Source of the DNA: a bacterium
GTDB taxonomy: Bacteria; Sysuimicrobiota; Sysuimicrobiia; Sysuimicrobiales; Kaftiobacteriaceae
DNA length: 37,827 bases
Assembly: GCA_044868695.1 (NCBI GenBank)
Contig: JBIOWP010000153.1
Coordinates: 1 to 37,827, forward strand
Direction: 5' to 3'
In this document: positions 2,389-31,564 of the stretch, piece by piece
Numbering within the stretch: position 1 is the first letter of the stretch
How the letters are laid out: each line of letters starts with the position of its first letter
Position numbers and translations under genes: made by a program
Notes under the pieces: generated by a model
Told to the model about the DNA's origin: nothing
Databases searched by the model: none
The model's input: the letters and a program-made list of their open reading frames with translations, nothing else

Positions 2389-3459
2389 GTGGACATCAAT
2401 GAACTGTTGACCCTGGTCAAAGAGAAGCGCGCCTCCGACCTGCACATCAAGGTGGGCAATCACCCAATCCTCCGGATCAACGGGCGGCTGCAGCTGCTCA
2501 CCGACCATCCGACCCTGGATCAGGCGGCGGCGCGCACGCTGATCGAGAGCATGATGAGTGACGCCCAGATCCAGGTGTTCCGCGAGCACCTGGAACTGGA
2601 CTTCGCGTACAGTGTACCCGGGGTGTCCCGGTTCCGTGTCAACGTGTACCAGCAGCGCGGTTCCATGGGCGCGGCCATCCGCGCGATCCCCATGGGCGTC
2701 CCCGCCCTCGAAGACCTGGGTCTCCCCGACGTCGTGCGCAGGCTGGCGGCCCTCCCGCGCGGCCTGGTGCTGGTGACCGGTCCCACGGGGAGCGGCAAAT
2801 CGACCACACTCGCGGCGATCATCAACCACATCAACCAGACCCGGTCCGAGCACATCGTGACTATCGAGGACCCGATCGAGTACCTCCACCGGGACAACAA
2901 GAGCGTCGTCAACCAGCGCGAGGTGGGGATGGACACGCTCTCGTTTGCCAACGCGCTGCGGCACTTCCTGCGCCAGGACCCCGACGTTGTCCTCATTGGA
3001 GAAATGCGCGACCTGGAGACCATCTCGACGGCGATCACGGCCGCGGAAACCGGCCACCTGGTCTTCGCGACCCTGCACACGCAGAGCGCGGCGCAGACAG
3101 TCGACCGCATCATCGATGTCTTCCCTCCACACCAGCAAACTCAGGTGCGCACGCAGCTCTCCGTCGCCCTGGAGGGCGTCTTGTCCCAGACCCTGATCCC
3201 TATGGCCAGCGGCCAGGGGCGGATCGCAGCCATTGAGGTCATGCTGGCCACCGGCGCCATCCGCAATCTCATCCGTGAGGGTAAGACCTTCCAGATTCCG
3301 TCGGCCATCATGTCCGGAGCCAAAGAAGGGATGCAGACGCTGAACCAGGCACTCCGCGTGCTGGTGGAGCACAAGAAAATCACCTACGAGGACGCCGTCA
3401 GCAAGGCCACCAGCGAGCGCGACCTGGCGCAGCTGCTGGGGCGGCAAATCCCTGTCTGA
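2389..3459 (+). CDS. pilT: Type IV pilus retraction ATPase PilT
   Basis: ASDLH, Walker A GPTGSGKST, TIEDPIE, LRQDPDV, AAETGHLVFATLH and the PilT-specific AIRNLIRE motif. Confidence 0.95.
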   Translation: MDINELLTLVKEKRASDLHIKVGNHPILRINGRLQLLTDHPTLDQAAARTLIESMMSDAQIQVFREHLELDFAYSVPGVSRFRVNVYQQRGSMGAAIRAIPMGVPALEDLGLPDVVRRLAALPRGLVLVTGPTGSGKSTTLAAIINHINQTRSEHIVTIEDPIEYLHRDNKSVVNQREVGMDTLSFANALRHFLRQDPDVVLIGEMRDLETISTAITAAETGHLVFATLHTQSAAQTVDRIIDVFPPHQQTQVRTQLSVALEGVLSQTLIPMASGQGRIAAIEVMLATGAIRNLIREGKTFQIPSAIMSGAKEGMQTLNQALRVLVEHKKITYEDAVSKATSERDLAQLLGRQIPV

Positions 3460-10167: not shown

Positions 10168-10213
10168 GGGGCCGGGCATGCGGTCGCGAACATGTCCGGC
10201 CTCCACATTTCTT
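10168..10213 (+). terminator. Stem-loop downstream of lon (possible terminator)
   Basis: GGCCGGGCATG-N10-CATGTCCGGCC stem followed by a weak T-rich tract (ACATTTCTT). Confidence 0.35.
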
Positions 10214-10219
10214 GGGCGT

Positions 10220-10236
10220 CCGGCACGGTTGTTGCT
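10220..10236 (+). promoter_or_regulatory. Sigma54 (-24/-12)-type promoter upstream of the first PilB-like ATPase
   Basis: CCGGCACGGTTGTTGCT: GG(10222-3)-N10-GC(10234-5), matching consensus YTGGCACG-N4-TTGCW. Confidence 0.55.
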
Positions 10237-10254
10237 CCAATATGGGGTGTTCCC

Positions 10255-12027
10255 ATGGCAACAGCACGGGCACATCCATCGAAGTCCACCAAACGGCTGG
10301 GAGAACTCCTCCTGGAAGCGGCCGTCATTACCGAGGCACAGCTGTCCGAGGCGCTGGAAGAGCAGAAGCGCACCGGCAAACGGCTGGCGCAAATCTTTAT
10401 TGAGGGCGGCCTGCTGGCCAAGGGCGAGGCCGGCCGGTGGCTGGCGCTGCAGCAGGGCTACGAGTACATCAACCTCACCGCCGAGCCGATCGACATCCAC
10501 GTTGCCCAGGTGCTCCCCGAAGCCTTCGTCCGCCGCCTGATGGCCCTGCCCATCCGCCAGGAAGGCAAAGACCTCATCGTGGCGATGGCGGACCCGTCCG
10601 ACATTCTGGCCGTGGACGAGATCTCCCGCGCCACGGGCACGCGCGTGCAGCCGGTGTTCACCACCGAAAGCGACCTTGAGTGGGCGATTACTCAACTCTT
10701 CGACGTCGGTGGGAAGGTCACCAAGGCCGCCAACGCCGCCAACGCCGCGGCGTCGGGCGACCCCATCGAGTTTGGGGAAACGGCGGTCAACGGCAACGGC
10801 AACGGCGACGGCGCGGGCAGCGGCACCAGCATCGAAGACGGCGTGGTGGTGCTCGGCAACGAGTCCTCGCCGCCGGTCATCCAGATGGTGGACTCCATTC
10901 TGCAGGGCGCCATTATCTCGCGGACCACCGACATCCACCTGGAGCCGCACATGCAGAGCGCCCGCGTGCGGTTCCGCATCGACGGCATGCTCTACGACAA
11001 AGCGACGATTCCACGGCTGCTGTACGCCGCGGTCGTGAGCCGCATCAAGATCCTGGCCTCACTCGACATCGCCGAGCACGCCAAACCGCAGGACGGCCGC
11101 ATCTCGATGCGGTTGAAGGAACACGAATACGATGTCCGCGTGGGCATCACCAGCACGGCGTTCGGTGAGCGCGTCGTCATGCGGCTGCTGGACAAGAGCA
11201 ACGTGACGCTGGGGCTGGACCGGCTGGGGATTCCCGCCGACCAGGAACAGATCATCCAGTCCCTCATCCGCAAGCCACACGGCATGATCCTGGTCACGGG
11301 GCCGACCGGCAGCGGAAAAACCACCACTCTGTACTCGTGTCTCCACTCTATCAACGGCCCGGCGCACAACATCATCACGATCGAAGATCCCATCGAGTAC
11401 TACCTGGACGGGATCTCGCAGATCCCTGTGCGGCCGCGGTCGGGCGTCACCTTTGCCACAGGACTGCGCAGCATCCTGCGCCAGGATCCCGATGTGGTCA
11501 TGGTGGGCGAGATTCGCGACGCGGAGACGGCAAAAATCTCAGTCCACGCCGCGCTTACCGGGCACCTGGTGTTCTCGACGCTGCACACCAATGATGCCGC
11601 CGGGTCGGTCGTGCGGCTGGTCGACATGGGCATCGAGCCGTACTTCATCACCTCCTCGCTGGTCGCCTCGATCGGCCAGCGGCTGATGCGGCGGCTGTGC
11701 CCCACGTGCAAGCAGCCGTTCCCGATCACCAAGGAACTGATCACGGAGCTCGGCCTTCCCAAGAGCACGTCCGCCAAGCTGTACAAGCCGGTCGGGTGTC
11801 CGGAGTGTGACCAGACCGGCTACCGCGGCCGGATGTGCGTGATGGAGATCTTCCGGATGAACGATGCGATCCGCGACCTCGTGCTGGCCCACAAACCCGC
11901 CACCGCGCTGCGCGATGCCGCCGTCACCGGTGGGATGACGACCATCCAGGACGCGGCGAAAGCCAGGGTGCTCGACGGCAGCACTACGGTCGAGGAACTG
12001 CGCCGGGTCATCTACCTCGAAGAATAA
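10255..12027 (+). CDS. PilB/GspE-family extension ATPase (paralog 1) with degenerate MshEN N-terminus
   Basis: RLGELLLE..., TDIHLEP, PQDGRI, GPTGSGKTTT, LRQDPD, Zn motif CPTC...CPEC, GYRGR. ATG 10255 preferred over 10192 because of the promoter and RBS positions. Confidence 0.9.
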   Translation: MATARAHPSKSTKRLGELLLEAAVITEAQLSEALEEQKRTGKRLAQIFIEGGLLAKGEAGRWLALQQGYEYINLTAEPIDIHVAQVLPEAFVRRLMALPIRQEGKDLIVAMADPSDILAVDEISRATGTRVQPVFTTESDLEWAITQLFDVGGKVTKAANAANAAASGDPIEFGETAVNGNGNGDGAGSGTSIEDGVVVLGNESSPPVIQMVDSILQGAIISRTTDIHLEPHMQSARVRFRIDGMLYDKATIPRLLYAAVVSRIKILASLDIAEHAKPQDGRISMRLKEHEYDVRVGITSTAFGERVVMRLLDKSNVTLGLDRLGIPADQEQIIQSLIRKPHGMILVTGPTGSGKTTTLYSCLHSINGPAHNIITIEDPIEYYLDGISQIPVRPRSGVTFATGLRSILRQDPDVVMVGEIRDAETAKISVHAALTGHLVFSTLHTNDAAGSVVRLVDMGIEPYFITSSLVASIGQRLMRRLCPTCKQPFPITKELITELGLPKSTSAKLYKPVGCPECDQTGYRGRMCVMEIFRMNDAIRDLVLAHKPATALRDAAVTGGMTTIQDAAKARVLDGSTTVEELRRVIYLEE

Positions 12028-12034
12028 CCATATG

Positions 12035-12068
12035 AAATCGTCAATCCGAAATCCGCAATCCGAAATCG
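12035..12068. repeat. Heptamer tandem repeat (A/C)AATCCG, about 5 copies
   Basis: AAATCGT CAATCCG AAATCCG CAATCCG AAATCG. Confidence 0.8.
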
Positions 12069-12101
12069 TTCCTGTCACTCCTTCCTTTGTCCGAAGGGAC
12101 C

Positions 12102-12110: not shown

Positions 12111-12116
12111 CACCGG

Positions 12117-12335
12117 CAAGCGATGAAGGGGAGGAGTACCTGCGCGCCCTCCCAGCAAGGGAGATCCTGCGGCTGGAAGATCTCCCGGCGCGGCGCGATG
12201 GGGAAGGTCGCCCCCAAGCGAGAGGGGATGCGCCCCAGATCGCGCGTCGAGACCCGCCCTGCGTAGCTCGCAGGCGGAAGACAGGTGGTACCACGGAGTG
12301 ATGGCTCCGTCCTGACGGACGGAGCATTTTTGTTT
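12117..12335 (+). promoter_or_regulatory. T-box riboswitch (Val), transcription-attenuation type
   Basis: Stem I with AGTA/GAA S-turn and likely specifier GTC (Val, 12207-12209). T-box AGGTGGTACCACGG (12283-12296) with UGGU. Upstream of valS. Confidence 0.9.
12304..12335 (+). terminator. T-box attenuator terminator
   Basis: GCTCCGTCC-TGAC-GGACGGAGC followed by ATTTTTGTTT. Overlaps the antiterminator 3' strand. Confidence 0.85.
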
Positions 12336-12356: not shown

Positions 12357-15197
12357 ATGGCATCCAAGACGTTGCCCACAACCTACGACCCACGCCAGGT
12401 TGAGATCGCGCGGTACAAAACCTGGATGGACGCGGGGTACTTTCACGCGCCAGTGGATCCGTCCCGGGAGCCGTTCGTCATCATGCTGCCGCTGCCGAAC
12501 GTGACGGGTGAGTCGCACATCGGCACCGCCTCCACCTTCTCTCTCCAGGACGTGCTCATCCGGTGGCGCCGGATGCAGGGGCGCAACGCGCTGTGGCAGC
12601 CCGGCACCGACCACGCAGGGATCGCCACGCAGAACGTGGTGGAGCGCGAGCTCGCCAAGGAAGGGCTTACCCTGCAGCATCTCGGCCGCGAGAAGTTCGT
12701 CGAGCGGGTCTGGCAGTGGAAGCATCGGTACGGCGGCATCATCGACGGTCAGCTCAAGCGCATGGGGTTCTCACTGGACTGGGACCGTTATGTCTTTACC
12801 CTCGACCCCGGCTATTCTGCGTCGGTCACCGAGGCGTTCGTGCGCCTGTTTCAGCAGGGCTTGATCTATCGCGGCAAGCGCATGGTGAACTGGTGTCCTC
12901 GAGACGGAAGCGCCATCTCCGACCTGGAGGTGGAGTACACGGACGTGGACACGCACCTCTGGTACGTGCGCTATCCGGGCGCCGACGGCGGGCCGGGCAT
13001 TGTGATTGCCACGCAGCGCCCGGAGACGATCCTGGCGGATGTAGCGGTGGCGGTCCACCCAGAGGATCCCCGGTACGCGGGATCCGTCGGACGCGATGTG
13101 TTAGTGCCTATCGTAAATCGCCGGGTGCCGGTGATTGCGGACAAGCGCGTGGATCCCGCATTTGGGACCGGCGCGCTAAAGATCACGCCCGGCCACGACC
13201 CGCTTGACAACGAGATCGGCACCGATCACGGCCTCCCGACGCTGGTGGTCCTCGACCCCCAAGCCCGCATGACCCCCGAAACGGGCACATTCGCAGGGCT
13301 CGATCGCTTCGAGGCGCGCAAGGCTGTCGGCGAAGCCCTCAAGGCGATGGGGCTCGTGGAGAAGGTGGAGGCGTACCGGACGAGCGTGGGCACCTGCGAC
13401 CGGTGCCACGCCGTGATCGAACCCTACATCAGCGACCAGTGGTTCGCGGACATGTCGGGGATGGCTGCGCGCGCGGCTCAGGTGATCCGCGACGGCAGGG
13501 TGCGCTTCCACCATGAGCGCTGGGCGAGAGTGATCCTGAACTTCCTCGACCACATCCGGCCGTGGACGATCTCGCGGCAGCTGTGGTGGGGGCACCGCAT
13601 CCCGGTGTGGCAGTGCGATGCGTGCGGCGAGCGTGTGGCCGCGGCGGGGCCGCCGGCAACCTGTCCGAAGTGCGGCCGGCACGCGCTCACCCAGGATCCG
13701 GACGTCCTGGACACCTGGTTCAGCTCGGGTCTCTGGCCGTTCGCCACCCTGGGGTGGCCGAACGACACGCCCGACCTGCGGTATTTCTATCCCGGGAGCG
13801 TCCTCGTGTCCGACAGGGGGATTCTCTTCCTATGGATTGCCCGCATGATCATGCTCGGGCTGCACTTCATGGACGACATCCCGTTTACTGATGTGTACGT
13901 CGCGCCCACCGTGATGGCGCTGGACGGCCGGCGGATGAGCAGGTCGCTCGGCACCGGGATCGACCCGTTGGAGATGGTGGAGGCGCGAGGGTACGGGGCG
14001 GATGCCGTGCGCTTTGCTCTGGTGTCCAGGTGCTCCCAGGAACAGCAGGACCTCCGCTTCAGCGAGAAGATGATCGCCGACGTCCGCAACTTTAACACCA
14101 AGATCTGGAACGCAGCGCGCTTTGTGCTCATGAACCTCGAGGATTTTGATCCCGGCGTGCCTCCGCCGGCACCGACGGCGCTCTCGGCCGCCGACCGCTG
14201 GATTCGCAGCCGGTACGCGCGGCTGGTGGCGGACGTCACCGCGCACCTGGAGGCCTTCGAGTTCGACAAGACGGCCCGGGCGCTGTACGACTTCATCTGG
14301 AGTGAGTTTTGCGACTGGTACCTGGAGTTGGGGAAGGTCGATCTCCAACAGGGAACCCCCACGCCGGCTTCGCTAGCTCGGGGCGGAGCGCGGGAACGCG
14401 GGAACGCGGGAACGCGACAACCGAAGCGGCGGCAGGCGGTACAGCACACGCTGTGGTTGGTGCTCTCGAATACGATGAAGCTGCTGCATCCGATCATGCC
14501 CTTCATCACCGAAGAGATCTGGCAGGCGCTGCCGCACGACGGACCCAGCATCATGATCGCGCCGTGGCCGCGGCGGGAGCCGGAATGGATCGACCCGGCG
14601 GCGGAGCAGGAGATCGGAACGGTGATGGCCGTGGTGCGCGCGGTGCGCAGCCTGCGGACCGAACTCTCGATTCCTCCCGCCCAGCGGGTCCCCGTGCACC
14701 TGCGCGCCGGGGGCAAGGTTCGGAAAATCCTGGACCAGGCCCGGCCGGCCCTGGCCGCGCTGGCGAAAGCCGACCCGATCCGCCTTGAACCGGCTGGCTC
14801 GCCGACACCAGCCGGCAGCGTGACGACACTCCTGCCGGACGTGGAGGTGGTTGTGCCGGTGGGAGGGCTCATTGATGTTGCAAAAGAGCGTGCGCGTCTC
14901 GACAAGGCGCTGGGGGAGTTGCAGGCGGAGCTTGACCGGCTGCAGCAGCGGCTGGAGAACCGTGAGTTCACGGAACGGGCTCCCGCCCACGTGGTGGCTC
15001 AGCAGCGGGAGCGCGCCGATGAGCTTCGCGGACGGCGCCACCGGCTGCAGGATGTGGTGAAAAGTCTGGCCTCGGCTGCAGCGGGCAGGGGACCGCGAAC
15101 ACGCCCCGCGAAACCTCAGGTACGTCGTCCTCGAGGAGGTGGCGACCCTGCAGCCCACCGACGCCGCCGACGCCCGTCGTCTCGAGGCCGCCCGTAA
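12357..15197 (+). CDS. valS: Valine--tRNA ligase with non-canonical signature motifs
   Basis: PNVTG, PGTDHAGIATQ, GTGALKITPGHD, ISRQLWWGHRIP, DVLDTWFSS, FCDWYLE and C-terminal coiled coil, plus a Val T-box. Start moved to ATG 12357 because 12285 lies inside the T-box. Confidence 0.93.
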   Translation: MASKTLPTTYDPRQVEIARYKTWMDAGYFHAPVDPSREPFVIMLPLPNVTGESHIGTASTFSLQDVLIRWRRMQGRNALWQPGTDHAGIATQNVVERELAKEGLTLQHLGREKFVERVWQWKHRYGGIIDGQLKRMGFSLDWDRYVFTLDPGYSASVTEAFVRLFQQGLIYRGKRMVNWCPRDGSAISDLEVEYTDVDTHLWYVRYPGADGGPGIVIATQRPETILADVAVAVHPEDPRYAGSVGRDVLVPIVNRRVPVIADKRVDPAFGTGALKITPGHDPLDNEIGTDHGLPTLVVLDPQARMTPETGTFAGLDRFEARKAVGEALKAMGLVEKVEAYRTSVGTCDRCHAVIEPYISDQWFADMSGMAARAAQVIRDGRVRFHHERWARVILNFLDHIRPWTISRQLWWGHRIPVWQCDACGERVAAAGPPATCPKCGRHALTQDPDVLDTWFSSGLWPFATLGWPNDTPDLRYFYPGSVLVSDRGILFLWIARMIMLGLHFMDDIPFTDVYVAPTVMALDGRRMSRSLGTGIDPLEMVEARGYGADAVRFALVSRCSQEQQDLRFSEKMIADVRNFNTKIWNAARFVLMNLEDFDPGVPPPAPTALSAADRWIRSRYARLVADVTAHLEAFEFDKTARALYDFIWSEFCDWYLELGKVDLQQGTPTPASLARGGARERGNAGTRQPKRRQAVQHTLWLVLSNTMKLLHPIMPFITEEIWQALPHDGPSIMIAPWPRREPEWIDPAAEQEIGTVMAVVRAVRSLRTELSIPPAQRVPVHLRAGGKVRKILDQARPALAALAKADPIRLEPAGSPTPAGSVTTLLPDVEVVVPVGGLIDVAKERARLDKALGELQAELDRLQQRLENREFTERAPAHVVAQQRERADELRGRRHRLQDVVKSLASAAAGRGPRTRPAKPQVRRPRGGGDPAAHRRRRRPSSRGRP
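14390..14416. repeat. Octamer tandem repeat GCGGGAAC x3 inside valS
   Basis: GCGGGAAC GCGGGAAC GCGGGAAC GCG. The 24-nt repeat keeps the frame and lies in an apparent loop insertion. Confidence 0.85.
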
Positions 15198-17999: not shown

Positions 18000-19700
18000 G
18001 TGGCCAAGGTTCACCGTAAGCGAATCGGCGATATCCTGGTAGAGACCGGGGTCGTGACACCTCAGCAGCTGACGGAGGCGCTGGCCCAACAGCGCCGGAC
18101 CCGCGAGCGCCTGGGGCGCGTCCTGGTGGACATCGGCGCGGCCACCGAGAAGCAGATTGCACAAGCTCTCGCCGCCCAGCTGGATCTGCCGCTCATCAAC
18201 CTCTCGTCGGCCCGCATCGATCCCAACGCGGTCAAACTCATTCCCGAAGTCCTCGCGCGCAAGCGCCGCGTCCTGCCCCTGCAGCTGGACGGCGGGCAGA
18301 TCGTCGTCGCCGTCGCCGATCCGCTGGACGTATTCGCCCTCGATGACGTCGGGATCGCGGCGCGGCGGCCGGTCAAACCCGTGGTCGCGGTGGAGTCGGA
18401 AGTCATGGCTGCGATCGAGCGCGCGTATGGGATGGGCGCGGCGGCGCAGGCGGTCCTCGGCGACGCCGGGGAGGAAGCCCCCGCACCCGTCGCCCTCGCG
18501 CCCGGGGCGGAAGAGGCGGACGACGCGCCGGTCGTGCGCCTCGTCAACCTGATCCTGAGCCAGGCGCTGAAGGACCGCGCCAGCGACGTGCACGTCGAGC
18601 CGGCGGAAGAGGACCTGCGTGTCCGCTACCGCATCGACGGGGTGCTGCAGACGGTGATGACACTGCCGAAAAACGTGCAGCCGGCGCTGACCTCGCGGAT
18701 AAAGGTGCTGGCGCGTCTGAACATCGCCGAGCGCCGCGTGCCGCAGGACGGCGCGTTCGAGATGACGCTGGATACGCGCCGCATCGACTTCCGCGTGTCT
18801 ACCGTCCCGACGATCTACGGGGAACGCGTCGCCGTCAGGCTGCTGGACAAGAGCAAGGGGCTGCTGACGCTAGAGGAGCTGGGCCTGGACGCGCGGACGC
18901 GGCGGCGGTTTGAAGGGCTCTTCCGCCAGCCGTTCGGGATCATTCTGGTCAGCGGCCCGACCGGGAGCGGGAAGACCACGACGCTGGTGAGCACGCTCGC
19001 GCTGCTGAACTCGGTCGACAAGAACATCATCACGGTCGAGGACCCCGTGGAGTACCAGCTTCCTGGCGTCAGCCACATCCAGGTGAACCCACGATCGGGG
19101 TTGACCTTTGCATCGGGGCTGCGATCCATCGTCAGGCAGGACCCCGACATCATCATGATCGGCGAGGTCCGCGACGTGGAGACCGCTGAGATTGCCATCC
19201 ACGCCTCACTGACCGGCCACCTCGTCCTGACCACCATCCACACCAATGATGCGCCCAGCGCATTGACCCGTTTGTCGGATATGGGCATCGAGCCGTACTT
19301 AATCGCCTCGGCGGTCATCGGCGTGGCCTCGCAGCGCCTGATCAGGCTGCTGTGCCGTGCCTGCAGACAGCCGGCGCCGATCCCCAAAGACATCGTCGCC
19401 TGGCTGCAGACCACCGTCAGAGATCCGCTCCCCGCACCCGAGTTTCACCGGCCCGTTGGCTGTGCCCAGTGCCGGCATACCGGGTATCAGGGGCGCACCG
19501 GGATCTTCGAGGTGCTGGCGATGACCGAACCGCTGCGCAAGCGGGTGCTGGCCCGGGCATCGGCGGCCGAGCTGGGCGAGGTGGCGCGCGGCGACGGGAT
19601 GATCGGCATGCGTGCGGACGGCATGCTGAAAGCGATGCAAGGCCAGACGACTGTCGAAGAAGTCCTGCGGGTGACAAGGGTGGAGGAGCCCGCGCTCTAA
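18000..19700 (+). CDS. pilB: PilB/GspE-family extension ATPase (paralog 2) with near-consensus MshEN motif
   Basis: RIGDILVETGVVT..QL..AL..Q...RLGRVLV, APVVRLVN, ASDVHVEP, GPTGSGKTTT, CRAC...CAQC, GYQGRTG. Confidence 0.9.
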   Translation: MAKVHRKRIGDILVETGVVTPQQLTEALAQQRRTRERLGRVLVDIGAATEKQIAQALAAQLDLPLINLSSARIDPNAVKLIPEVLARKRRVLPLQLDGGQIVVAVADPLDVFALDDVGIAARRPVKPVVAVESEVMAAIERAYGMGAAAQAVLGDAGEEAPAPVALAPGAEEADDAPVVRLVNLILSQALKDRASDVHVEPAEEDLRVRYRIDGVLQTVMTLPKNVQPALTSRIKVLARLNIAERRVPQDGAFEMTLDTRRIDFRVSTVPTIYGERVAVRLLDKSKGLLTLEELGLDARTRRRFEGLFRQPFGIILVSGPTGSGKTTTLVSTLALLNSVDKNIITVEDPVEYQLPGVSHIQVNPRSGLTFASGLRSIVRQDPDIIMIGEVRDVETAEIAIHASLTGHLVLTTIHTNDAPSALTRLSDMGIEPYLIASAVIGVASQRLIRLLCRACRQPAPIPKDIVAWLQTTVRDPLPAPEFHRPVGCAQCRHTGYQGRTGIFEVLAMTEPLRKRVLARASAAELGEVARGDGMIGMRADGMLKAMQGQTTVEEVLRVTRVEEPAL

Positions 19701-19703
19701 ACG

Positions 19704-19788
19704 CGTTGGACTGTTGAAGCGTTGAAACGTTGAACCGTCACAACCGGCCGGTTGTTATGTTCGCTTCAACGTTTCAACGGTCCAACGG
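19704..19788. repeat. Inverted octamer arrays (approx. CGTTGAAA) around a perfect 16-bp palindrome between convergent genes
   Basis: CGTTGGAC TGTTGAAG CGTTGAAA CGTTGAAC (19704-19735), ACAACCGGCCGGTTGT (19740-19755), GCTTCAAC GTTTCAAC GGTCCAAC (19763-19786). Confidence 0.85.
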
Positions 19789-20172
19789 CTCCACGGACTT
19801 GCGGATCGCCTCGATGATCTCCATCGCCGGCTGGTCCTTCACAAGCAGGCCCTCCAGGCCGTTTTGAATGACTTTCTCACGGTCCAGCGCCCCTGGGAAC
19901 GCGGTGAGCATGAACACCTTTACGTTCGGAAGTTCCTTGACGATCGTGCGGGCGGCGGTGTAGCCGTCCAGGTTGGTCATCCGGAAGTCGATGAGGATTA
20001 CGTCGGGCTGCAGGTCGCGCGCCCCGGTTACCGCTTCCTGGCCGTCGGCCGCCTCGCCCACAACCTCCAGGTCCGCCTGGGTCCGCAGCAGGCGCGCCAT
20101 GCGCTGGCGATAACCGGCGTTGTCGTCAACCAGCATGACGCGAATTTTTCTTCCCGTCTCTCCCGAGGGCAC
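19774..20172 (-). CDS. Stand-alone response-regulator receiver protein (NarL-like REC, no output domain)
   Basis: IRVMLVDD, VVGEAADG, PDVILID phospho-Asp, MLTA, LVKD. 132 aa. Confidence 0.88.
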   Translation of the reverse strand: MPSGETGRKIRVMLVDDNAGYRQRMARLLRTQADLEVVGEAADGQEAVTGARDLQPDVILIDFRMTNLDGYTAARTIVKELPNVKVFMLTAFPGALDREKVIQNGLEGLLVKDQPAMEIIEAIRKSVEPLDR

Positions 20173-20177
20173 ACCTA

Positions 20178-20224
20178 AGTCTAGGCGGGCTCGACGCGAT
20201 CGAACAATGGGCCGAAGGTACTAC
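20178..20224 (-). promoter_or_regulatory. Promoter of the stand-alone receiver gene with pseudo-palindromic box (probably leaderless)
   Basis: Minus strand: box GTAGTACCTTCGGCCCAT (20224-20207), TTGTTC, 18-nt spacer, TAGACT (20183-20178), then 5 nt to the GTG at 20172. Confidence 0.55.
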
Positions 20225-20239
20225 GAAAACGAGTTGACC

Positions 20240-20908
20240 TTAGTCGGCCGGAGGCACCAGTCCGCGCCGCAGCGCATAGACGGCCGCCTGGGTGCGGCTC
20301 TGGACGTGGAGCTTCTCCATGATGTTGCTGAGATGGTTCTTGACCGTGCGCTCGCTGATGGAGAGGCGGTGGGCGATCTCTTTGTTGGCGAGACCCGCGG
20401 CGACGTGCCGCAGGATCTCGAGCTCGCGCTCGGTGATGGGGAGGGGCACCGCGACGACATCCTTCGCCTCGCGCGTGCGGACGAACTCGCGCATGACTTT
20501 CGCGGCCATCGTGGGCGCCAGCAGGCCCTCGCCGCTGAACACGACCCTGATGGCGCGGATGAGCTCCTCCGGCGAGGAATCCTTCAACAGGTAGCCCATG
20601 GCACCCGACTTGATCGCCTCAAACAGGAACTCCTCGTCGGCGTGCACAGTCAGCATGATGATGCCGGTCCGGGGGCTGGCGCCCTTGATCGTCCGCGCCG
20701 CGTCGATGCCGGATTGCCCCGGCATCGCGACGTCCAGCAGCACGACGTCGGGTGCCAGCTCCTCCACCTGACGCACGGCCTGCTCGCCCGACTCCGCCTC
20801 ACCGACGACCTCGATGTCACCGGCCGCTTCGAGCAGCCGCCGCACGCCCTGGCGGAAGAGCGCGTGGTCGTCGGCCAGCAGCACGCGAATTGATCCGGAC
20901 CTACCCAC
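20240..20908 (-). CDS. NarL/LuxR-family DNA-binding response regulator
   Basis: IRVLLADDHALFRQG, PDVVLLDV, GYLLKD, LuxR HTH TERELEIL...GLANKEIA..L.ISERTVKNHLSNI. GTG 20908 overlaps the kinase stop. Confidence 0.93.
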   Translation of the reverse strand: MGRSGSIRVLLADDHALFRQGVRRLLEAAGDIEVVGEAESGEQAVRQVEELAPDVVLLDVAMPGQSGIDAARTIKGASPRTGIIMLTVHADEEFLFEAIKSGAMGYLLKDSSPEELIRAIRVVFSGEGLLAPTMAAKVMREFVRTREAKDVVAVPLPITERELEILRHVAAGLANKEIAHRLSISERTVKNHLSNIMEKLHVQSRTQAAVYALRRGLVPPAD

Positions 20909-22982
20909 GCTCTCGCCCCAGAAGAATGCGGCTGGTGACAGTGGTCCCGTGCCCGGGTGCCGTGGTAATTTCCAACCTGCCGCCGACCAGCGCGGCCCGT
21001 TCCTCCATCGAGGCGAGCCCGAGGTGCTGCGGGCTCGGCGCCTGGGAACGGAATGCGACGAGGTCAAAGCCGACGCCGTTATCCGTCACGCTCGTGGTGC
21101 AGCTGTCCTCCGTCACGTCCGCGCGGATCGTGACCGTGGTTGCTTTCGCGTGGGTACGCACATTCGTGAGCGCCTGCCGCACGATGGCCAGGATGGCGTA
21201 CCGGGCCGCCGACGCAAGACGCGCCGCGTCGCCCGTCACGACGACCGACGTGGGGATTTCCGTCCGGCGCTGAAATTCCCGTCCGAGTTCCTCCAGAGCC
21301 GACGCGAGGCCTCCTCCGACTTCGGGATCGCGCCGCAGCTCACTCATGAACTCCCGGAGCTCGCGCATGCCGCGCTCGAGCAGCGTACGCAGTTCTTTGA
21401 GGTCCGCCGCGATCTGGACGGGATTCCCCTGGGCCGCCATTGCCGACAGGTCGGTTTGCAGCAGCGCGTCGGCGAGGGTCTGCGCCAGACCGTCGTGCAT
21501 CTCCCGCGCGATGCGGCGGCGTTCTTCGACGACCCCGATGTCGGCCACGCGGTTGGCGGTCCGCGCCGTGTGGACCGCCGCGGCCACCAGCGAGGCGACC
21601 GCGTTCAACTGCCCCGAGGACGTCGCGGCCCCTCCCGTCAACCCGAGGCCGATCGCTCCGATCCTCCTGGCTTCCAGACGCAGGGGCACGCAGGCCACCG
21701 CTGGACCCGGGTTGCCGGCGTGGTTCCCGGCCATGTGCAGCCGCCCGTCGGTGCTGGCCGCCAGCAGCCCCGGCAGAAACATCAACGCCGCCTGGCCGCC
21801 GATGCCCCGGGAGGCGACGATGTCGAGCGTCCCCGTGTCCTCGCGCTCGAGCGCTAGGACGGCAAACTGCGCCCCGATCAAAGAGCGGGTCTGATCGAGC
21901 AGGACCGGCCAGAGCACCGCCGGATCGCGTAGCAGAGCCCGGCTGACGCCGATGAACCCCGCCGTCACGTCGCCCAGCATCACCGCGAAAGTCCGTTCAT
22001 GCTGGGCACGGAGCAGCATCGCGGCGATGTGCCGGGCGGTGAGTTCCGCGGTGTCCAGGTCGTCCTGCGAAAACCACGGGCGCCCAGCTGCGCGGTTCAG
22101 GTTCAGCACGCCCAGCGGCAGCCCGCCGGAGGGGACGGGGACTACGATCGAGGAGACGATTTCCTTGCGCTGGAGGGGGACCGGCGCGGAGGTGTTGGGC
22201 GTCAACAGCATCGCGCGCCCCTCCTGGGCCACCCATCCCGCGACGCCCTGGCCCAGGCGCGGCCGCACCTGCCGGTAGGTGTCGCTGAGGCGGTGGGCGG
22301 CAAAGATTTCCAGGCGGTCATCTTGTGGGTCATAGACCATCAGCGACCCACTGTCCGCCCGGAAGTGCCGGGCGATCGTGCCGAGAATGATGGCGGCTGT
22401 TTCCGCTGCCGGGGATGCCGTCGCCGTGAGCTGGTCCAGCGAGGCCAGCAGCGCCGACGCGCGGGTCCGCCGGTTCAGGCGGGTGATTCCGGCCGCCGCG
22501 GCATGGCCCGCCGCCTGTAAGGTCAGCGCGGCGACGGCCCACGCGGCATAGAGGCCCGGCGTGAACAGAGAGCCGCGCAGCGGGGGCAGCTGCAGAATGC
22601 CGATGACCCCCGCGACGGCCGCCGCGCCGGGATGTCCCATCAGCACGCCGGCGGTCGCGGCGGTCACAAACCCGAGATAGAAAAATGGCAGAGCGCGGCC
22701 CGCAATCTGCATCGCCGCCCCGATGGCGATGGTGTCCAGCACCACGCCCGCGCGCGCCGCCTGCGATGCCCGGTCGGGAAACCGCCAGACGTACAGATTC
22801 AGCGCCAGCGTGTACGCCAAGATTCCCAGGTAGAGTTCCATCGGGGGCCTGACGGGCGCGGGCGTCAGCACTTCGTAGGCGATAAGGGCGGCCAGGGCCA
22901 GCCACCGGAGGGGAAGGGCGGCGTGAGCGAACTCGAGTAGCTCGTCCCGCCGATCCCTGGGCGACGCGGCGGATTCATTCAT
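20901..22982 (-). CDS. Membrane sensor histidine kinase (TM helices, GAF domains, HisKA_3, HATPase)
   Basis: Hydrophobic N-terminus, GAF (GQGVAGWVA...VPV...GVLNL...FSQDD), EERRRIAREMHDGLAQ H-box, NVRTHA, DNGVGF, GLASMEER. Start ATG 22982 inferred. Confidence 0.9.
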   Translation of the reverse strand: MNESAASPRDRRDELLEFAHAALPLRWLALAALIAYEVLTPAPVRPPMELYLGILAYTLALNLYVWRFPDRASQAARAGVVLDTIAIGAAMQIAGRALPFFYLGFVTAATAGVLMGHPGAAAVAGVIGILQLPPLRGSLFTPGLYAAWAVAALTLQAAGHAAAAGITRLNRRTRASALLASLDQLTATASPAAETAAIILGTIARHFRADSGSLMVYDPQDDRLEIFAAHRLSDTYRQVRPRLGQGVAGWVAQEGRAMLLTPNTSAPVPLQRKEIVSSIVVPVPSGGLPLGVLNLNRAAGRPWFSQDDLDTAELTARHIAAMLLRAQHERTFAVMLGDVTAGFIGVSRALLRDPAVLWPVLLDQTRSLIGAQFAVLALEREDTGTLDIVASRGIGGQAALMFLPGLLAASTDGRLHMAGNHAGNPGPAVACVPLRLEARRIGAIGLGLTGGAATSSGQLNAVASLVAAAVHTARTANRVADIGVVEERRRIAREMHDGLAQTLADALLQTDLSAMAAQGNPVQIAADLKELRTLLERGMRELREFMSELRRDPEVGGGLASALEELGREFQRRTEIPTSVVVTGDAARLASAARYAILAIVRQALTNVRTHAKATTVTIRADVTEDSCTTSVTDNGVGFDLVAFRSQAPSPQHLGLASMEERAALVGGRLEITTAPGHGTTVTSRILLGRERG

Positions 22983-23046
22983 CGTGCACAAACTTCGTAT
23001 CATCGCGTGACAAACCCTCTGCACACAAATGTCCAACGGCGTCGAC

Positions 23047-23093
23047 CTGGTACCATTGGCCGATTGCGGGTAGAGTGGCGCCGCTGGTAGAAT
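23047..23093 (+). promoter_or_regulatory. Promoter of pilC with pseudo-palindromic box
   Basis: Box CTGGTACCATTGGCCGAT (23047-23064), TTGCGG (23064-23069), 18-nt spacer, TAGAAT (23088-23093) preceded by TGG. Confidence 0.6.
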
Positions 23094-23117
23094 TTGTCCT
23101 CTGCGAGGCGACCTGTC

Positions 23118-24332
23118 GTGACGAGATTCGTCTACCGCGCGTGGGACCAGGCCGGCCGGTTAGAAACCGGCGTTGTGGAGGCTGACAGTCCCCGCGTTGC
23201 TGCGGCGTCCCTGCAGGCCCGGGGATATCTCGTCACCGGGCTGACCGAGCAGGAACAACTCACCGGCGCGGTGACGCAGGTCCAGCGATTCTTCCGCGTA
23301 AGCCGCCGTGACCTGGTCCTTTTCACGCGGCAGCTCGCCACGATGATCTCGGCCGGCCTGCCGATCGTCTCCGCGCTGGGCGTGCTGGAGGAGCAGGCGT
23401 CGAACCGGCGCTTCCGCGCGATCATCGCCGCGGTACGCTTGGGAATCGAACGGGGCGGCACGTTGTCGGGAGAGGTCGCCAAACACCCTCAGGCCTTCTT
23501 CGAGTTCTACGTCAACACGGTGCGTTCCGGCGAGGTCAGCGGTGTCCTGGATACGTCGCTGAACTATCTAGCCGATTACCTGGAACGAGAATATGATCTC
23601 GTTCAGCGGGTGCGGACGGCCGCCACCTATCCGCTCGTGGTGCTCGCGTTCACGTTGCTGGTCGCCGGCGCCGCGGTGCTGTTCATCGTCCCGATCTTCG
23701 TGCAGGTCTTCTCGTCGTTCCGGGTCGCGCTGCCGCTGATCACGCGAGTGATGCTGGGGGTCAGCCAGAGCGTCCGCGCCTTCTGGTGGATCGGGCTGCT
23801 GGCCCTTGGCGTACTGGGCATGGCCGCGTCGGCGGCCCGGCGCACCGACGCCGGCCAGCGGGCGGTCGACCGACTCATGCTGCGCGTCCCCCTGCTCGGC
23901 CCCATGATGCTGCGTCTGTCGCTCGCGCGGTTCGGCCGGGCGATGGCGGTCGTCATCCGCAGCGGCATCCCGCTGCTCGAAGGATTGGCCGTCGTGGCCA
24001 CCGCGCTTGGCAATCGGGTGGTCGGGCGAGAATTCTCTGCCGCGCGTGAAGGCATGCGCGCCGGCCAGTCGATGGCCGAGGCGCTGCAGCGTCAACCGCT
24101 GGTGCCGCCGATGGTGGTCCAGATGGTCCGGGTAGGGGAGGAGACGGGCGCCATGGAGGAGGTGCTCAACAAGATCGCGGAGTTCTACGAGCGCGAGGTC
24201 GACAATACGGTCAAACGCTTCGCCTCGGTGGTCGAGCCCATCCTCATCGTCGGCGTCGGCGGCGTGGTCGCGTTGGTGGCGCTGGCCGTCCTGCTGCCCA
24301 TCTGGACCCTGATTGCCACTCTACCCCGGTAG
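23118..24332 (+). CDS. pilC: Type IV pilus platform protein PilC (T2SSF family)
   Basis: FVYRA...GVVEADS, FTRQLATMISAGLP, GEVSGVLD, YPLVV, MVRVGEETG, EPILIV. GTG 23118 follows GAGG. Confidence 0.92.
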   Translation: MTRFVYRAWDQAGRLETGVVEADSPRVAAASLQARGYLVTGLTEQEQLTGAVTQVQRFFRVSRRDLVLFTRQLATMISAGLPIVSALGVLEEQASNRRFRAIIAAVRLGIERGGTLSGEVAKHPQAFFEFYVNTVRSGEVSGVLDTSLNYLADYLEREYDLVQRVRTAATYPLVVLAFTLLVAGAAVLFIVPIFVQVFSSFRVALPLITRVMLGVSQSVRAFWWIGLLALGVLGMAASAARRTDAGQRAVDRLMLRVPLLGPMMLRLSLARFGRAMAVVIRSGIPLLEGLAVVATALGNRVVGREFSAAREGMRAGQSMAEALQRQPLVPPMVVQMVRVGEETGAMEEVLNKIAEFYEREVDNTVKRFASVVEPILIVGVGGVVALVALAVLLPIWTLIATLPR

Positions 24333-24390
24333 GGCTGGTAGCTCGCGTAGTCCTTTTGTCCTACGCCGGCGGGCCTAACGTCCCATTGTT

Positions 24391-24408
24391 GAGGCATGGT
24401 AATTGCAT
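24391..24408 (+). promoter_or_regulatory. Sigma54-type promoter upstream of the major pilin
   Basis: GAGGCATGGTAATTGCAT: GG(24393-4)-N10-GC(24405-6) with TTGCA. Confidence 0.6.
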
Positions 24409-24451
24409 AAGAATATGGGCGGATCACCGGCCTGGCAAGGGGGAGATGGGG

Positions 24452-24955
24452 ATGACAGGAATTCGGAAACGACTGCGGGCGGCGCGCGGCTTCACCCTTA
24501 TTGAGATCGCGATCGTGGTCGCCATCATCGGCATCCTGCTGCTGATCGCGCTGCCGCTGTTCACCGGTGCCCGCGTGCGGGCCTATGTCGCGGAAGCCCG
24601 GCAGCTCACGTCCGAGTGGAAATCGCTCGCGTGGGCGTGCCTCATCGAGAAGAACTTCCGGGAGAACCGGTGCGATACGACGACGGAGGTTGGGTGGACG
24701 TCGGCGCCGGCCAGCGACGCCTGGGATTGGCCCAGCGCCGTGATGTTCTGCGGGAACATTGCCAGCATCCCACCCACACAGGCCGCGAGTACGTGCGCCG
24801 CTGACATTACCGGGGTCACGGCCGTCGTCGGCCTGCGCGTGCCGCTGGTGGCCAGCCCGCCAACCGGGCTGACGCAGCCGTACCTGCTGGCCATCAAGAC
24901 GACGACCGGGCAGGTGCTGGAGAGCCCGGCCGACGGAAGCTCGATGACGCCGTAA
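24452..24955 (+). CDS. pilA: Type IV major pilin candidate
   Basis: Basic leader MTGIRKRLRAARG, then FTLIEIAIVVAIIGILLLIALP (G-1/F+1/E+5/P22). Four Cys, GGGGAGA RBS, own promoter and a downstream hairpin. Confidence 0.82.
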   Translation: MTGIRKRLRAARGFTLIEIAIVVAIIGILLLIALPLFTGARVRAYVAEARQLTSEWKSLAWACLIEKNFRENRCDTTTEVGWTSAPASDAWDWPSAVMFCGNIASIPPTQAASTCAADITGVTAVVGLRVPLVASPPTGLTQPYLLAIKTTTGQVLESPADGSSMTP

Positions 24956-24971
24956 TAGGACGAGATGTCGC

Positions 24972-25011
24972 GATGGCGGAGAGGCGGCGAAGCGGCCGCC
25001 TCTTCGCCGTC
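24972..25011 (+). terminator. Strong stem-loop after the major pilin (terminator or mRNA stabiliser)
   Basis: GATGGCGGAGAGGCGGC-GAAGCG-GCCGCCTCTTCGCCGTC, 17-bp stem without a U-tract. Confidence 0.55.
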
Positions 25012-25027
25012 TGGGGGGTCCGATCAG

Positions 25028-26371
25028 ATGCGCTTGCACACCAGCGAACCCGCGCGCCACGCCGGCGTCCTGCTGCTGGCGGGCGGGGTGCTGCTCGCCG
25101 TCGCCGCCGTCCCCCTGCTGTTGAACCTGGGCAGTCTCGACGACACGTACTATGCGGTCAAGGCCCGGGCGCTTGCCATTCTGGCTCCACTGCTTCTCGC
25201 CGGCGTGCTGGCGGCTCGCGGCATTCCTGACCTGCGGCGCACCGGGATGCTGTGGCCGCTGCTCGCGTTCGTCGCGGCGGTTACGGTGGCGACGGTGTTC
25301 TCCATCGACCCCGCATGGAGCGTGACCGGAGCGCCTCGCCGCCACGAAGGACTGCTGTCGCTCCTCGCGTACGCCCTCACGTGCGCCGGTACGCTGATCC
25401 TGGTCGCCCGCACCGGGCCGCGGGTGTGGCACGGCGCCGCGCTGGCCTGCGCGACGCTGGTAGCCGGCTACGGAGTCGCTCAGGCCTTCGGACTGGAGTG
25501 GCTCGTGCGCGATTCCGTTCGCGTGTCCTGGTGGCGTCCGTTTTCGACAACCGGCAACCCAAACTTCCTGGGCGCCTACATGGTGCTGGCGGCGCCGCTG
25601 GCCGCGGCGGCTCTCCTGGACGCGCGGCATGTGGCCGTGACATTGCTGGCGGGATGCGCCCTGACGCTCTCCGTCCTGGCGGCGCTCTTCACGTACAGCC
25701 GCGCTGCGTGGCTGGGACTGGTGGCGGCGGCCCTTGTGTTTGCCTTCGCGCTCGGTGGGCGGATCGGGTACGCTTCCAGTCCCCGCATCAGGACGCGGCT
25801 GTCCGCGGCCCTCGCCGTTGTCGTCGTCCTCGCAGCAGCGTTCTTCATCCCCGGCGGCCCGCTGGCCCTCCCGCGTGCCGACTGGCCTGCGGCGGTGCGC
25901 GCGCGGTCGGCGGTCGAACCCGGCGAGCCCGCGGCAGGATTCCGCCAGCGATCATACCTGTGGCGGCACACCCTGGCTCTGCTGTGGCACCGCCCGCTGA
26001 CCGGCTATGGTCCGGAAACATTCATGCTGGTGCTGCCGCAGCAGTGGGATGCGGAAAAAGCCGATCTGTTCGGCGAGCGTCCCCTACGGATCGACAAGGC
26101 GCACAACGAGACCCTCGACATGGCGATGTCATCCGGGTTGCTCGGCGTGGCGGCCTTCGCGTGGGTGCTCGCAGCCATTGCGCGCCGGGTGCGGGCGACG
26201 ATTGCGGCGGGGGGGACGGACCACGCGGTGGCGGCCGCCTGTCTGGCGGCAATGGTGGGGTACTGGATTGACGTCCAGTGGCATTTCAGCGCGGTGAGCG
26301 TCGCGCCGGTCTTCTGGAGCGTAATGGGAGCCGCGGCAGGGACGGCGCTCCGCACGGAGCAGCTCAGATGA
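25028..26371 (+). CDS. O-antigen ligase (Wzy_C) family membrane protein, probable pilin oligosaccharyltransferase
   Basis: Many TM segments, STTGNPNFLG, TYSRAAWLG, PLTGYGPETF, KAHNETLDMA..SGLLG. Lies between major and minor pilins. Start uncertain (24965 or 25028). Confidence 0.8.
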   Translation: MRLHTSEPARHAGVLLLAGGVLLAVAAVPLLLNLGSLDDTYYAVKARALAILAPLLLAGVLAARGIPDLRRTGMLWPLLAFVAAVTVATVFSIDPAWSVTGAPRRHEGLLSLLAYALTCAGTLILVARTGPRVWHGAALACATLVAGYGVAQAFGLEWLVRDSVRVSWWRPFSTTGNPNFLGAYMVLAAPLAAAALLDARHVAVTLLAGCALTLSVLAALFTYSRAAWLGLVAAALVFAFALGGRIGYASSPRIRTRLSAALAVVVVLAAAFFIPGGPLALPRADWPAAVRARSAVEPGEPAAGFRQRSYLWRHTLALLWHRPLTGYGPETFMLVLPQQWDAEKADLFGERPLRIDKAHNETLDMAMSSGLLGVAAFAWVLAAIARRVRATIAAGGTDHAVAAACLAAMVGYWIDVQWHFSAVSVAPVFWSVMGAAAGTALRTEQLR

Positions 26372-26811
26372 GAACAGAGCGGGGGTTCAGCATCTTGGAG
26401 CTGCTCCTCGTTCTGGCCATCGGCGCCATCCTGGTGGTCGCTGCGCTGCCGCACCTGCAGCGGTACCTGGCCGTCCGGGATCTGGAGCACACCGCCCGGC
26501 TGCTGGGCGCCGACGTGCGACTGACCCAGCAGTATGCCGTGACGCAGGACGAGTCGTACCGGCTCGAGTATGCCTCGCCACAGTACTCGCTGCGGCGGAT
26601 CAGCGACGGCACTATCGTGAAGGTGGTGGACGTTCCTCCGACCATCACGGTGACGACTTCGTTTCCCAGCAACCGGGTGGACTTCACGGCCACCGGCGCT
26701 CCGGTGCAGACCGGGGCATTTTGCCTGACCGACGGCAGTGCGATCCTGCGGGTCGACGTGCAGCCCGCGACGGGACGGACTCAGATCACGGAGGTGCCGA
26801 CATGTCCGTGA
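26368..26811 (+). CDS. Minor pilin, FimT/FimU/GspH-like
   Basis: MRTERG|FSILELLLVLAIG, ADVRLTQQYAV, VDFTATGAP, ATGR. ATGA overlap. Confidence 0.82.
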   Translation: MRTERGFSILELLLVLAIGAILVVAALPHLQRYLAVRDLEHTARLLGADVRLTQQYAVTQDESYRLEYASPQYSLRRISDGTIVKVVDVPPTITVTTSFPSNRVDFTATGAPVQTGAFCLTDGSAILRVDVQPATGRTQITEVPTCP

Positions 26812-27197
26812 GACGGCAGCGCGGGATGACGCTGATCGAGGTGGTCACTGCTGTGGCGATCTTCGGGGTCGTCGTGGCCGTGCTGACCGGTTTCTTCCTC
26901 ATCGCGTCCGCGCGCGGCCTGCTGGGCCGTGACGTCACCACCGCCGCGCTGCTCGCACAGCAGCGCCTCGAACTGCTCAAGTCCAAAGAGTATGCGAGCC
27001 TGCCCGGCTTCGCCGCTACAGAGGTTTTGGACAGTCTGGGTAATGCCACGCCCGGCGGCCCGTACACACGAGTCACGACGCTCACCACGCCGGCGCTGGG
27101 CACGCCCGCCCTGACCCAGATCGACGTGACGGTAACGTGGCTCGATCAGACGGTGACGCGCACACTGACGATGTCGACCCTGGCGGTGGACGACTGA
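26802..27197 (+). CDS. Minor pilin, PilV-like
   Basis: MSVRRQRG|MTLIEVVTAVAIF, LAQQRLELL, IDVTVTW. GGAGG RBS. Confidence 0.82.
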   Translation: MSVRRQRGMTLIEVVTAVAIFGVVVAVLTGFFLIASARGLLGRDVTTAALLAQQRLELLKSKEYASLPGFAATEVLDSLGNATPGGPYTRVTTLTTPALGTPALTQIDVTVTWLDQTVTRTLTMSTLAVDD

Positions 27198-29838: not shown

Positions 29839-29935
29839 GGCCCCGCCGCCGGTGTCAGGGGAACTCTCCGCCGGCGGCGCGAATAGTGCCTACCAAGTTG
29901 ATGCCTTACGGGCCTCATCCGGCACATCGCAGACG

Positions 29936-31012: not shown

Positions 31013-31564
31013 ATGCGCATCGAGCTCAACCTCGTCCCCGCGTCCGTGCTCCGGCGGCGCGAGCAGGCCACCAGGCGCCGCGCCGTCGTCGGCGTGCCGG
31101 TCTTGATCGCGGCCGGGGTGGCGGTCCTCTACGGGCTGCTGATCGTTCAGGAGCGGCAGGCCAAAGACGCCGCCCGCGACGCGGAATCACGGTTAGAGGG
31201 CGTCCGCGCAAAGGCAGTCCGGCTGTCACAGTTGCAGGCCGAGATCGCGGAGTTTGAACAGAGCCGGCAGGCGCTGGTTGCGCTGGGAGGGCGGCCCAGG
31301 CCGCGGCTGTCCCCGGTGCTGGCCGAAGTGGGGGCTCTGGTTCCACGCGACGTGTGGCTTCAGTCGCTGACAGTGGAGACCGGCGGCATGAGCCTGACGG
31401 GCAACTCGCTCCAGCTCCGGTCCGTCGCGCTGTTTGCGTCGACCCTGGCGCAATCCGCGCTCTTTGAGCAGATCAAAGTCCAGAACCTGCAGCAGGTCGC
31501 AACCGGCCGGCGCGCGGTTACGCAGTTCCAGATCACCCTGCGCCTGAGAGGACTGGGCCCGTGA
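31013..31564 (+). CDS. pilN: Type IV pilus assembly protein PilN
   Basis: LNLVP N-terminal motif, single TM, coiled coil, PRDVWLQSL. Follows pilM. Confidence 0.87.
   Translation: MRIELNLVPASVLRRREQATRRRAVVGVPVLIAAGVAVLYGLLIVQERQAKDAARDAESRLEGVRAKAVRLSQLQAEIAEFEQSRQALVALGGRPRPRLSPVLAEVGALVPRDVWLQSLTVETGGMSLTGNSLQLRSVALFASTLAQSALFEQIKVQNLQQVATGRRAVTQFQITLRLRGLGP

Follow-up and report, generated by a model that had tools for sequence, protein, structure and literature searches.

We analysed a 37,827-nucleotide stretch of DNA (contig JBIOWP010000153.1 of assembly GCA_044868695.1, called here in its full length the window) from a bacterium of the family Kaftiobacteriaceae (order Sysuimicrobiales, phylum Sysuimicrobiota), whose genome is referred to as G000. 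The gene in question is valS, which encodes a class I valyl-tRNA synthetase (ValRS) whose two signature motifs, HIGH and KMSKS, read HIGT and RMSRS. When aligned with its relatives, the restricted signal is a single pair of changes, the replacement of the fourth-position histidine of HIGH (His4) by Thr or Ser together with that of the second lysine of KMSKS by Arg.

The valS locus and its product

The features of the locus are given below, with the ValRS of T. thermophilus (PDB 1GAX) as the reference.

12114..12335, + strand: Val T-box leader (weak match to Rfam RF00230, fold and conservation)
12207-12209, + strand: stem I specifier GTC (Val), within the leader
12286-12289, + strand: antiterminator bulge TGGT, within the leader
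12304-12325, + strand: terminator hairpin plus T-run, within the leader
12357..15197, + strand: valS, bacterial-type ValRS of 946 amino acids from ATG, no internal stops, the sole copy found in the assembly
12489..12500, + strand: PLPN loop before HIGH, putative Val-pocket element and backbone contact to the alpha-phosphate, by homology with NgLeuRS
12513..12527, + strand: S-HIGT, the HIGH motif with His4 replaced by Thr and the preceding Leu by Ser, His1 and Gly3 being kept (HIGT itself at 12516-12527)
13011..13028, + strand: TQRPET, editing-domain (CP1) motif corresponding to TVRPET in T. thermophilus
13179..13208, + strand: KITPGHDPLD, the second editing-site segment, conserved in the alignment to 1GAX
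13809..13835, + strand: SDRGILFLW, in which the acid of GxD has shifted from +3 to +1 (149-row comparison)
13893..13910, + strand: VYVAPT strand, in which the His of the canonical HGL is lost (comparison with relatives)
13932..13946, + strand: RMSRS, both Lys of KMSKS replaced by Arg, the second as an AGG codon (translation and relatives)
14351..14417, + strand: in-frame insert in a loop of the anticodon domain, consisting of a dispersed repeat (hairpin plus 8-mer); the valS of genome G005 has a near-identical insert

In profile searches the product matched the ValRS models PRK05729 (1063 bits, cut-off 704) and TIGR00422 (945 bits, cut-off 612). Its AlphaFold model, built from a 52-row alignment, had a mean predicted local distance difference test score (pLDDT) of 87.5 and showed a Rossmann fold, CP1, a helical anticodon domain and a C-terminal coiled coil, and its best Foldseek match was 1GAX (TM 0.79/0.87, 42% identity), with which it shares the domain order, fold, Val pocket, CP1 editing segments, Zn knuckles, anticodon domain and coiled coil. 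Aligned with 1GAX, the product is identical at every Val-pocket position (which we take to be Pro41, Asn44, Asp81, Trp456, Ile491 and Trp495) and conserved at every CP1 editing position (presumably Arg216, Thr219, Lys270, Thr272, Asp276 and Asp279, residues on which a literature search gave nothing relevant), and its anticodon segments are conserved too. The K, T and D residues of KITPGHDPLD presumably have editing roles, and the PLPN loop, whose Leu is found throughout the order, is assumed to act in 1GAX as listed above. Unlike these shared parts, HMGH, KMSKS and TGYDI of T. thermophilus have become S-HIGT, RMSRS and SDRGI, the HGL strand has become APT, and the repeat insert and a C-terminal tail of about 35 residues have been added. 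The tail, which extends valS about 35 codons beyond the stop of its orthologues (window about 15085-15197) and overlaps the next gene (start 15139), is of low confidence in the model and is present in other sequencing runs.

Searches of the G000 assembly, which is 95% complete, found no second valS. Since this assembly also lacks GluRS, the stronger evidence for a sole copy comes from the family, where each of the 22 genomes has one valS locus (three in pieces, one partial). Two GluRS-family genes were seen in each of the four relatives searched (G005, G012, G016 and G017). The ratio of nonsynonymous to synonymous substitution rates (dN/dS), calculated over the catalytic and CP1 part, lay between 0.063 and 0.154 in all 12 pairs and was alike for variant and canonical pairs, which excludes relaxed selection on valS. 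With an intact reading frame, a single locus and purifying selection, the gene is full length and maintained, as a preliminary description made from the letters of this DNA had held; the same description had asked for a search for a second, canonical valS and for a dN/dS test.

Its statement that the Val T-box is intact was likewise borne out. The leader has the specifier codon, UGGN bulge and terminator of RF00230, which it matches weakly (31.6 bits against a gathering score of 93, E 2e-5), and its TGGT bulge is complementary to the ACCA end of the tRNA-Val of the genome, the only one in the assembly. Of 30 orthologous loci, 28 keep the core of the T-box and 25 its GTC specifier.

These results bear on the idea that valS is a decaying paralogue, or an enzyme of changed substrate or function, decay being one of the outcomes that the preliminary description said would refute its proposal. 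In its favour two catalytic signature residues are altered, and an incomplete assembly, with no GluRS and one tRNA-Val, could miss a second valS. Set against this are the one locus per family genome, dN/dS as low as in canonical orthologues, the retained T-box, the conserved Val-pocket, editing and anticodon segments and a fold matching 1GAX, and we regard the idea as highly improbable. Judging from its sequence, the gene probably encodes an essential housekeeping ValRS, predicted to activate valine and edit threonine; the Val T-box and the sole copy lend indirect support to valylation and editing. Very likely it is the one valine-tRNA enzyme that this uncultured soil bacterium possesses, and a working one.

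The paired change against its lineage background

HIGT, RMSRS, TQRPE and SDRGILFLW, the four departures listed in the preliminary description, are all present by translation, and the window ValRS thus carries neither the consensus HxGH nor KMSKS, a consensus from which many other sole valS genes also depart. Read errors were excluded as the source of HIGT and RMSRS by the agreement of independent contigs at both motifs and by identical codons in three other species-level genomes. The HIGT codons showed 0 differences in the contigs from X2, a run of study P1, and from X6, a run of study P2, and no motif difference was seen for RMSRS in contigs of X2, X4 and X6; contigs of 4 of the 10 listed runs were compared, with the possible source run X1 excluded.

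To separate background from signal we used 149 non-dereplicated rows, made up of 30 genome loci and 119 homologues, one row coming from the unpublished genome G033. TQRPE is present in 148 of them and the Arg at the first lysine of KMSKS in 147, so both are lineage background, and we rejected them as special changes. The proposal that TQRPE marks an altered editing site is not supported either, given TVRPE in T. thermophilus and the conserved CP1 editing residues. In RMSRS, which retains the Met and both Ser of KMSKS, it is the second Arg that is special. As for SDRGILFLW, it does depart from the usual TGxDIxFFW, but merely by the position of one acidic residue: all 146 readable rows have exactly one acid in the GxD motif, at +1 (59 rows) or at +3 (87 rows). 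This residue toggles between the two positions at window 13809-13823 and in the orthologues (TDRGI, TGRDI, TANEI, TARDI), with several switches on the tree.

What is left is confined to few genomes. HxG[S/T] occurs in 8 of 94 genomes of the phylum, all within the family of the valS host; the search output shows one order for this phylum, which would fit CSP1-3/Sysuimicrobiota as PMC11604079 describes it. The 22 genomes of this family divide into Thr+Arg (4), Ser+Arg (3), Ser+Lys (1), His+Lys (13) and one unreadable, the pair thus being present in 7. Among the 149 rows we counted 129 His+Lys, 15 Ser/Thr+Arg (16 with P0009, read by eye), 2 Ser+Lys and 2 unread, and in none of them did His4 coexist with the second Arg. 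Co-occurrence of the motif changes, another test suggested beforehand, was found for His4 loss and the second Arg, which recur as a pair, and not for TQRPE or the first Arg, which are order-wide. S-HIGT is common to G005, G016, G018, P0004, P0008 and P0009. In a subclade of the family VYVAPT goes together with ASTF after the HIGH motif; this ASTF/APT active-site type is also seen in P0060, a protein named Candidatus Fraserbacteria.

Recurrence, recombination and single changes elsewhere

On a tree of 68 rows, built without 11 near-identical rows, the distant homologues above P0060 and the motif columns, the two traits need a minimum of 5 and 6 changes, and in 4 independent pairs Arg accompanied the loss of His 3-4 times, never the contrary. 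Placing the Thr group in one clade was rejected on the whole gene (p 0.0004), on the joined catalytic halves (p 0.014) and on RpoBC. The gene is a mosaic, in which the catalytic halves group by active-site type and the anticodon and C-terminal part lies closer to the RpoBC tree; breakpoints were placed close to where the catalytic domain ends and also in the C-terminal region (permutation p 0.002; max-chi breakpoints may be inflated by faster C-terminal evolution). In family f1 (L001, L007-L023) the catalytic halves of valS have apparently been exchanged between genera. From this recombination and the mixed monophyly tests we count about 2-4 origins of the pair within the family.

The insert shared with G005, at which the model falls below pLDDT 50 (residues 678-684), is uninformative on the direction of any transfer, since G000 has 3 copies of the repeat element and the three g6 genomes searched have 21, 14 and 7. 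In other genera different repeats occupy this anticodon-domain loop, and the leuS of G000 contains a related 8-mer repeat in frame.

Outside the phylum the same pair was found in an Actinomycetota clade, where 22 loci with both motifs readable (one canonical row from the unpublished genome G069) divide into 4 HIGT+KMSRS and 18 HxGH+KMSKS, with no mixed state. The Actinomycetota pair uses other Arg codons and represents an independent origin.

Each change is also found alone. In a GTDB scan a fourth residue other than His was read at no fewer than 119 loci (Ser at least 92, Thr at least 20, Gly at least 4, Tyr at least 2, Asn at least 1); among the matches listed these were mostly from Patescibacteria, with others from Chloroflexota, Eremiobacterota, Dormibacterota and Actinomycetota. 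Many Patescibacteria ValRS (L036-L154) combine HMGS with KISKS and are shorter, at about 700-750 amino acids, and several have GTDS replacing GTDH. A metagenome scan for MSR[ST] gave 86 stretches, of which 85 were translated and 73 were true Arg variants: 71 of ValRS type, 1 IleRS2 and 1 LeuRS. Where the HIGH region was readable, 43 of 47 Arg variants were also altered elsewhere in PPPNVTGxLHxGH (by Pro to Ser, Thr to Tyr, loss of His4 or GVHH), as against a loop change in 3 of 30 background Dehalococcoidia, a contrast that favours compensation; the 47 represent about 13 lineages, about 11 of them with a second change. Each of the two scans was conditioned on one trait. In Patescibacteria, Dehalococcoidia, Eremiobacterota, Dormibacterota and Actinomycetota, then, the same two ValRS positions change as in the window, but mostly one at a time, and the Thr+Arg pair was seen only in the Actinomycetota clade. 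That Lys to Arg always requires the loss of His4 was rejected, as most metagenome Arg variants keep HxGH, and since the ValRS of other uncultured phyla commonly carry just one of the two changes, their pairing is not obligatory. A variant that is common and has normal kinetics had been named beforehand as a ground for dropping the proposal of a special active site, and commonness was found for each change taken singly.

The GVHH just mentioned belongs to a full-length ValRS that also has KMSRT, on a Dehalococcoidia-like metagenome contig (L202:617-3283). It is a singleton, in a cluster of 2 sequences, and 0 of its 119 nearest homologues share GVHH; in the accessible text of PMC10485003 the G/AXHH swap is called exclusive to IleRS2.

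Probable compensation at the ATP site, with resistance and tolerance as alternatives

In the NgLeuRS-ATP-leucinol structure, bonds to the alpha-phosphate come from H52, which is His4, from K637, the second Lys of KMSKS, and from the backbone NH of Y43 just before HIGH (PMC9424281), and available excerpts of PMC10450160 describe HIGH and KMSKS as energetically coupled in full-length LeuRS, a coupling measured there only with alanine mutants. The two positions that co-vary in our family are thus two alpha-phosphate ligands of the LeuRS pre-transition-state structure, which makes compensation the best reading, and we consider it probable, from the pattern of the sequences, that the paired changes represent an ATP site that has been re-tuned. 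By homology, His4 and the second Lys bind the alpha-phosphate of ATP in the pre-transition state of class Ia enzymes; replacing His4 by Thr or Ser would take away one hydrogen-bond donor and open space, and Arg, with its longer, multi-donor guanidinium, could then take over the alpha/beta-phosphate contact. The loss of His4 seems to have come first in the family, where one genome has Ser4 with Lys and none has His4 with Arg. The pair arose more than once, and segments of the catalytic domain seem also to have passed from one genus to another through recombination within valS. We would expect a kcat/KM near normal with a shifted affinity for ATP, not new chemistry. The preliminary description had proposed a rewired active site, either inhibitor-resistant or with changed chemistry; co-occurring, recurring signature changes speak for the rewiring, and the match of the Val pocket, editing and anticodon segments to T. 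thermophilus speaks against changed chemistry.

Several observations weigh against compensation. The sign test on the pairing is underpowered and gave p 0.125; four short segments are compatible with a monophyletic Thr group (p 0.07-0.47), and recombination blurs the count of origins. Lys is kept in 62 of 66 non-His4 GTDB loci with readable KMSKS, among the matches listed, HIGH is intact in most metagenome Lys to Arg matches, and 4 of 47 metagenome ValRS combine Lys to Arg with a canonical loop. The Dehalococcoidia background (Arg in 0 of 30, a loop change in 3 of 30) leans canonical because it comprises the best-scoring 30 of 66 matches. Finally, the model is ligand-free and its mobile KMSKS loop is of low confidence (pLDDT about 58-66, below 50 at 529-532), so that it gives no active-site geometry.

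One alternative is nearly neutral tolerance, in which ValRS tolerates either change, drift in a GC-rich genome turns Lys into Arg, and 2-3 events are spread by recombination. This would fit the occurrence of each change alone in many lineages, the 67% GC of G000, the Arg at the first Lys order-wide and in MetRS, and the identical codons of the four Thr genomes at both motifs, as one origin would give. Position 4 is also variable in class I enzymes: it is not His in the TyrRS, TrpRS and class I LysRS of the genome, TrpRS has HIGN, and solved GluRS structures have HVGT or HVGG (PDB 9YMM, 9Y81 and 2O5R, with HVGT in 9YMM and 9Y81). By analogy with these, a class I site with Thr at position 4 can work, but GluRS and TrpRS with a non-His residue there keep the catalytic Lys (KLSKR) and the window ValRS does not. 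Tolerance also leaves unexplained why none of 129 His rows has Arg, though Lys to Arg is a single-base change, and why the same pair appears in an unrelated phylum with different codons; a single Thr clade was rejected for the whole gene and the joined catalytic halves, and the G000-like tract in the valS of G016 was not significant (p 0.09). We therefore think tolerance unlikely.

A second alternative is target-site resistance, in which the paired change, together with similar changes that recur in other ValRS, was selected to exclude a natural inhibitor, or a toxin that acts on the loop, from the HIGH-KMSKS channel and compensation would be the step that repairs its cost. The model is G/AXHH against mupirocin in IleRS2, to which the preliminary description had appealed. 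In the available text of PMC10485003, IleRS2 hyper-resistance swaps positions 1 and 3 (Gly or Ala at 1, His at 3) and keeps His4 and the KMSKS Lys, whereas the window ValRS has His1 and Gly3 intact and changes His4 and both Lys, at a position 4 that varies across class I enzymes, so that the analogy is inexact. Both, as far as that text goes, are class Ia enzymes that serve housekeeping with a signature motif altered in nature, the changes lining the HIGH/KMSKS channel, and resistance has been demonstrated for IleRS2 and would extend to the window ValRS only by analogy.

Several findings are consistent with resistance. Excerpts of PMC10485003 and PMC2721991 report His to Gln at position 4 of HIGH in laboratory-selected mupirocin-resistant S. 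aureus IleRS1, and the only IleRS found in the genome (G000 contig C18:2292-5582) is of type 2, with the hyper-resistant GVHH. As a separate observation, it reads DMHKS at the KMSKS site. GVHH with KMSRT in the ValRS of L202, the restriction of Lys to Arg in the MSR[ST] context to ValRS (71 of 73), and a mosaic like that of a resistance gene, in which catalytic segments pass from genus to genus and the anticodon domain keeps nearer the RpoBC tree, point the same way. Against it, the GVHH ValRS is a singleton, recombination of aminoacyl-tRNA synthetase genes needs no antibiotic, the change at position 4 differs from the IleRS2 mechanism, and the review PMC7916415, the one paper that a search on this subject gave, shows, in the part available, no natural ValRS inhibitor. 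Nor does valS have the extra copy or the biosynthetic or mobile location of self-resistance or second-copy synthetases: it is single, no biosynthetic or resistance genes lie within the window, and it sits in a conserved clpX-lon-pilB-valS locus, with its neighbours (lon, pilB or a HEAT gene) seen at 14 of 17 family loci checked. Resistance is a possible driver, though a doubtful one, and would point to an unknown ValRS inhibitor. Escape from lysine acetylation, or from kinases of the HipA type that act on the KMSKS loop, may be considered as well. The broader suggestion, that bacterial ValRS have repeatedly, in about a dozen lineages, been selected at the ATP alpha-phosphate site by a natural ValRS-directed antibiotic or toxin, the altered catalytic domain spreading between genera, is speculative and in our judgement improbable; if true, soils and sediments would hold an undiscovered agent of this kind, and these ValRS would be ready-made probes for it.

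Under compensation, the reading we prefer, the family offers natural single (Ser+Lys) and double (Thr/Ser+Arg) variants in orthologues that are 70-80% identical, which makes the HIGH-KMSKS coupling approachable as a mutant cycle of two alpha-phosphate ligands. In a sole-copy ValRS the second Lys of KMSKS, generally regarded as indispensable, can be replaced, and this matters when annotation calls such genes dead. Our literature searches showed no description of HxG[S/T] or KMSRS in ValRS, which is weak evidence of absence; PMC5919687 and PMC11580382, in their accessible parts, treat the signature motifs in general terms only.

The biology of the host is otherwise ordinary. A 7-mer tandem repeat lies between pilB and the T-box (window 12036-12070), with similar copies elsewhere in the genome. 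A type IV pilus or type II secretion cluster of ordinary composition (window 2389-3459, 10192-12027 and 18000-32115), with pilT, two pilB, pilC, pilins and pilMNO, surrounds tig-clpP-clpX-lon and valS.

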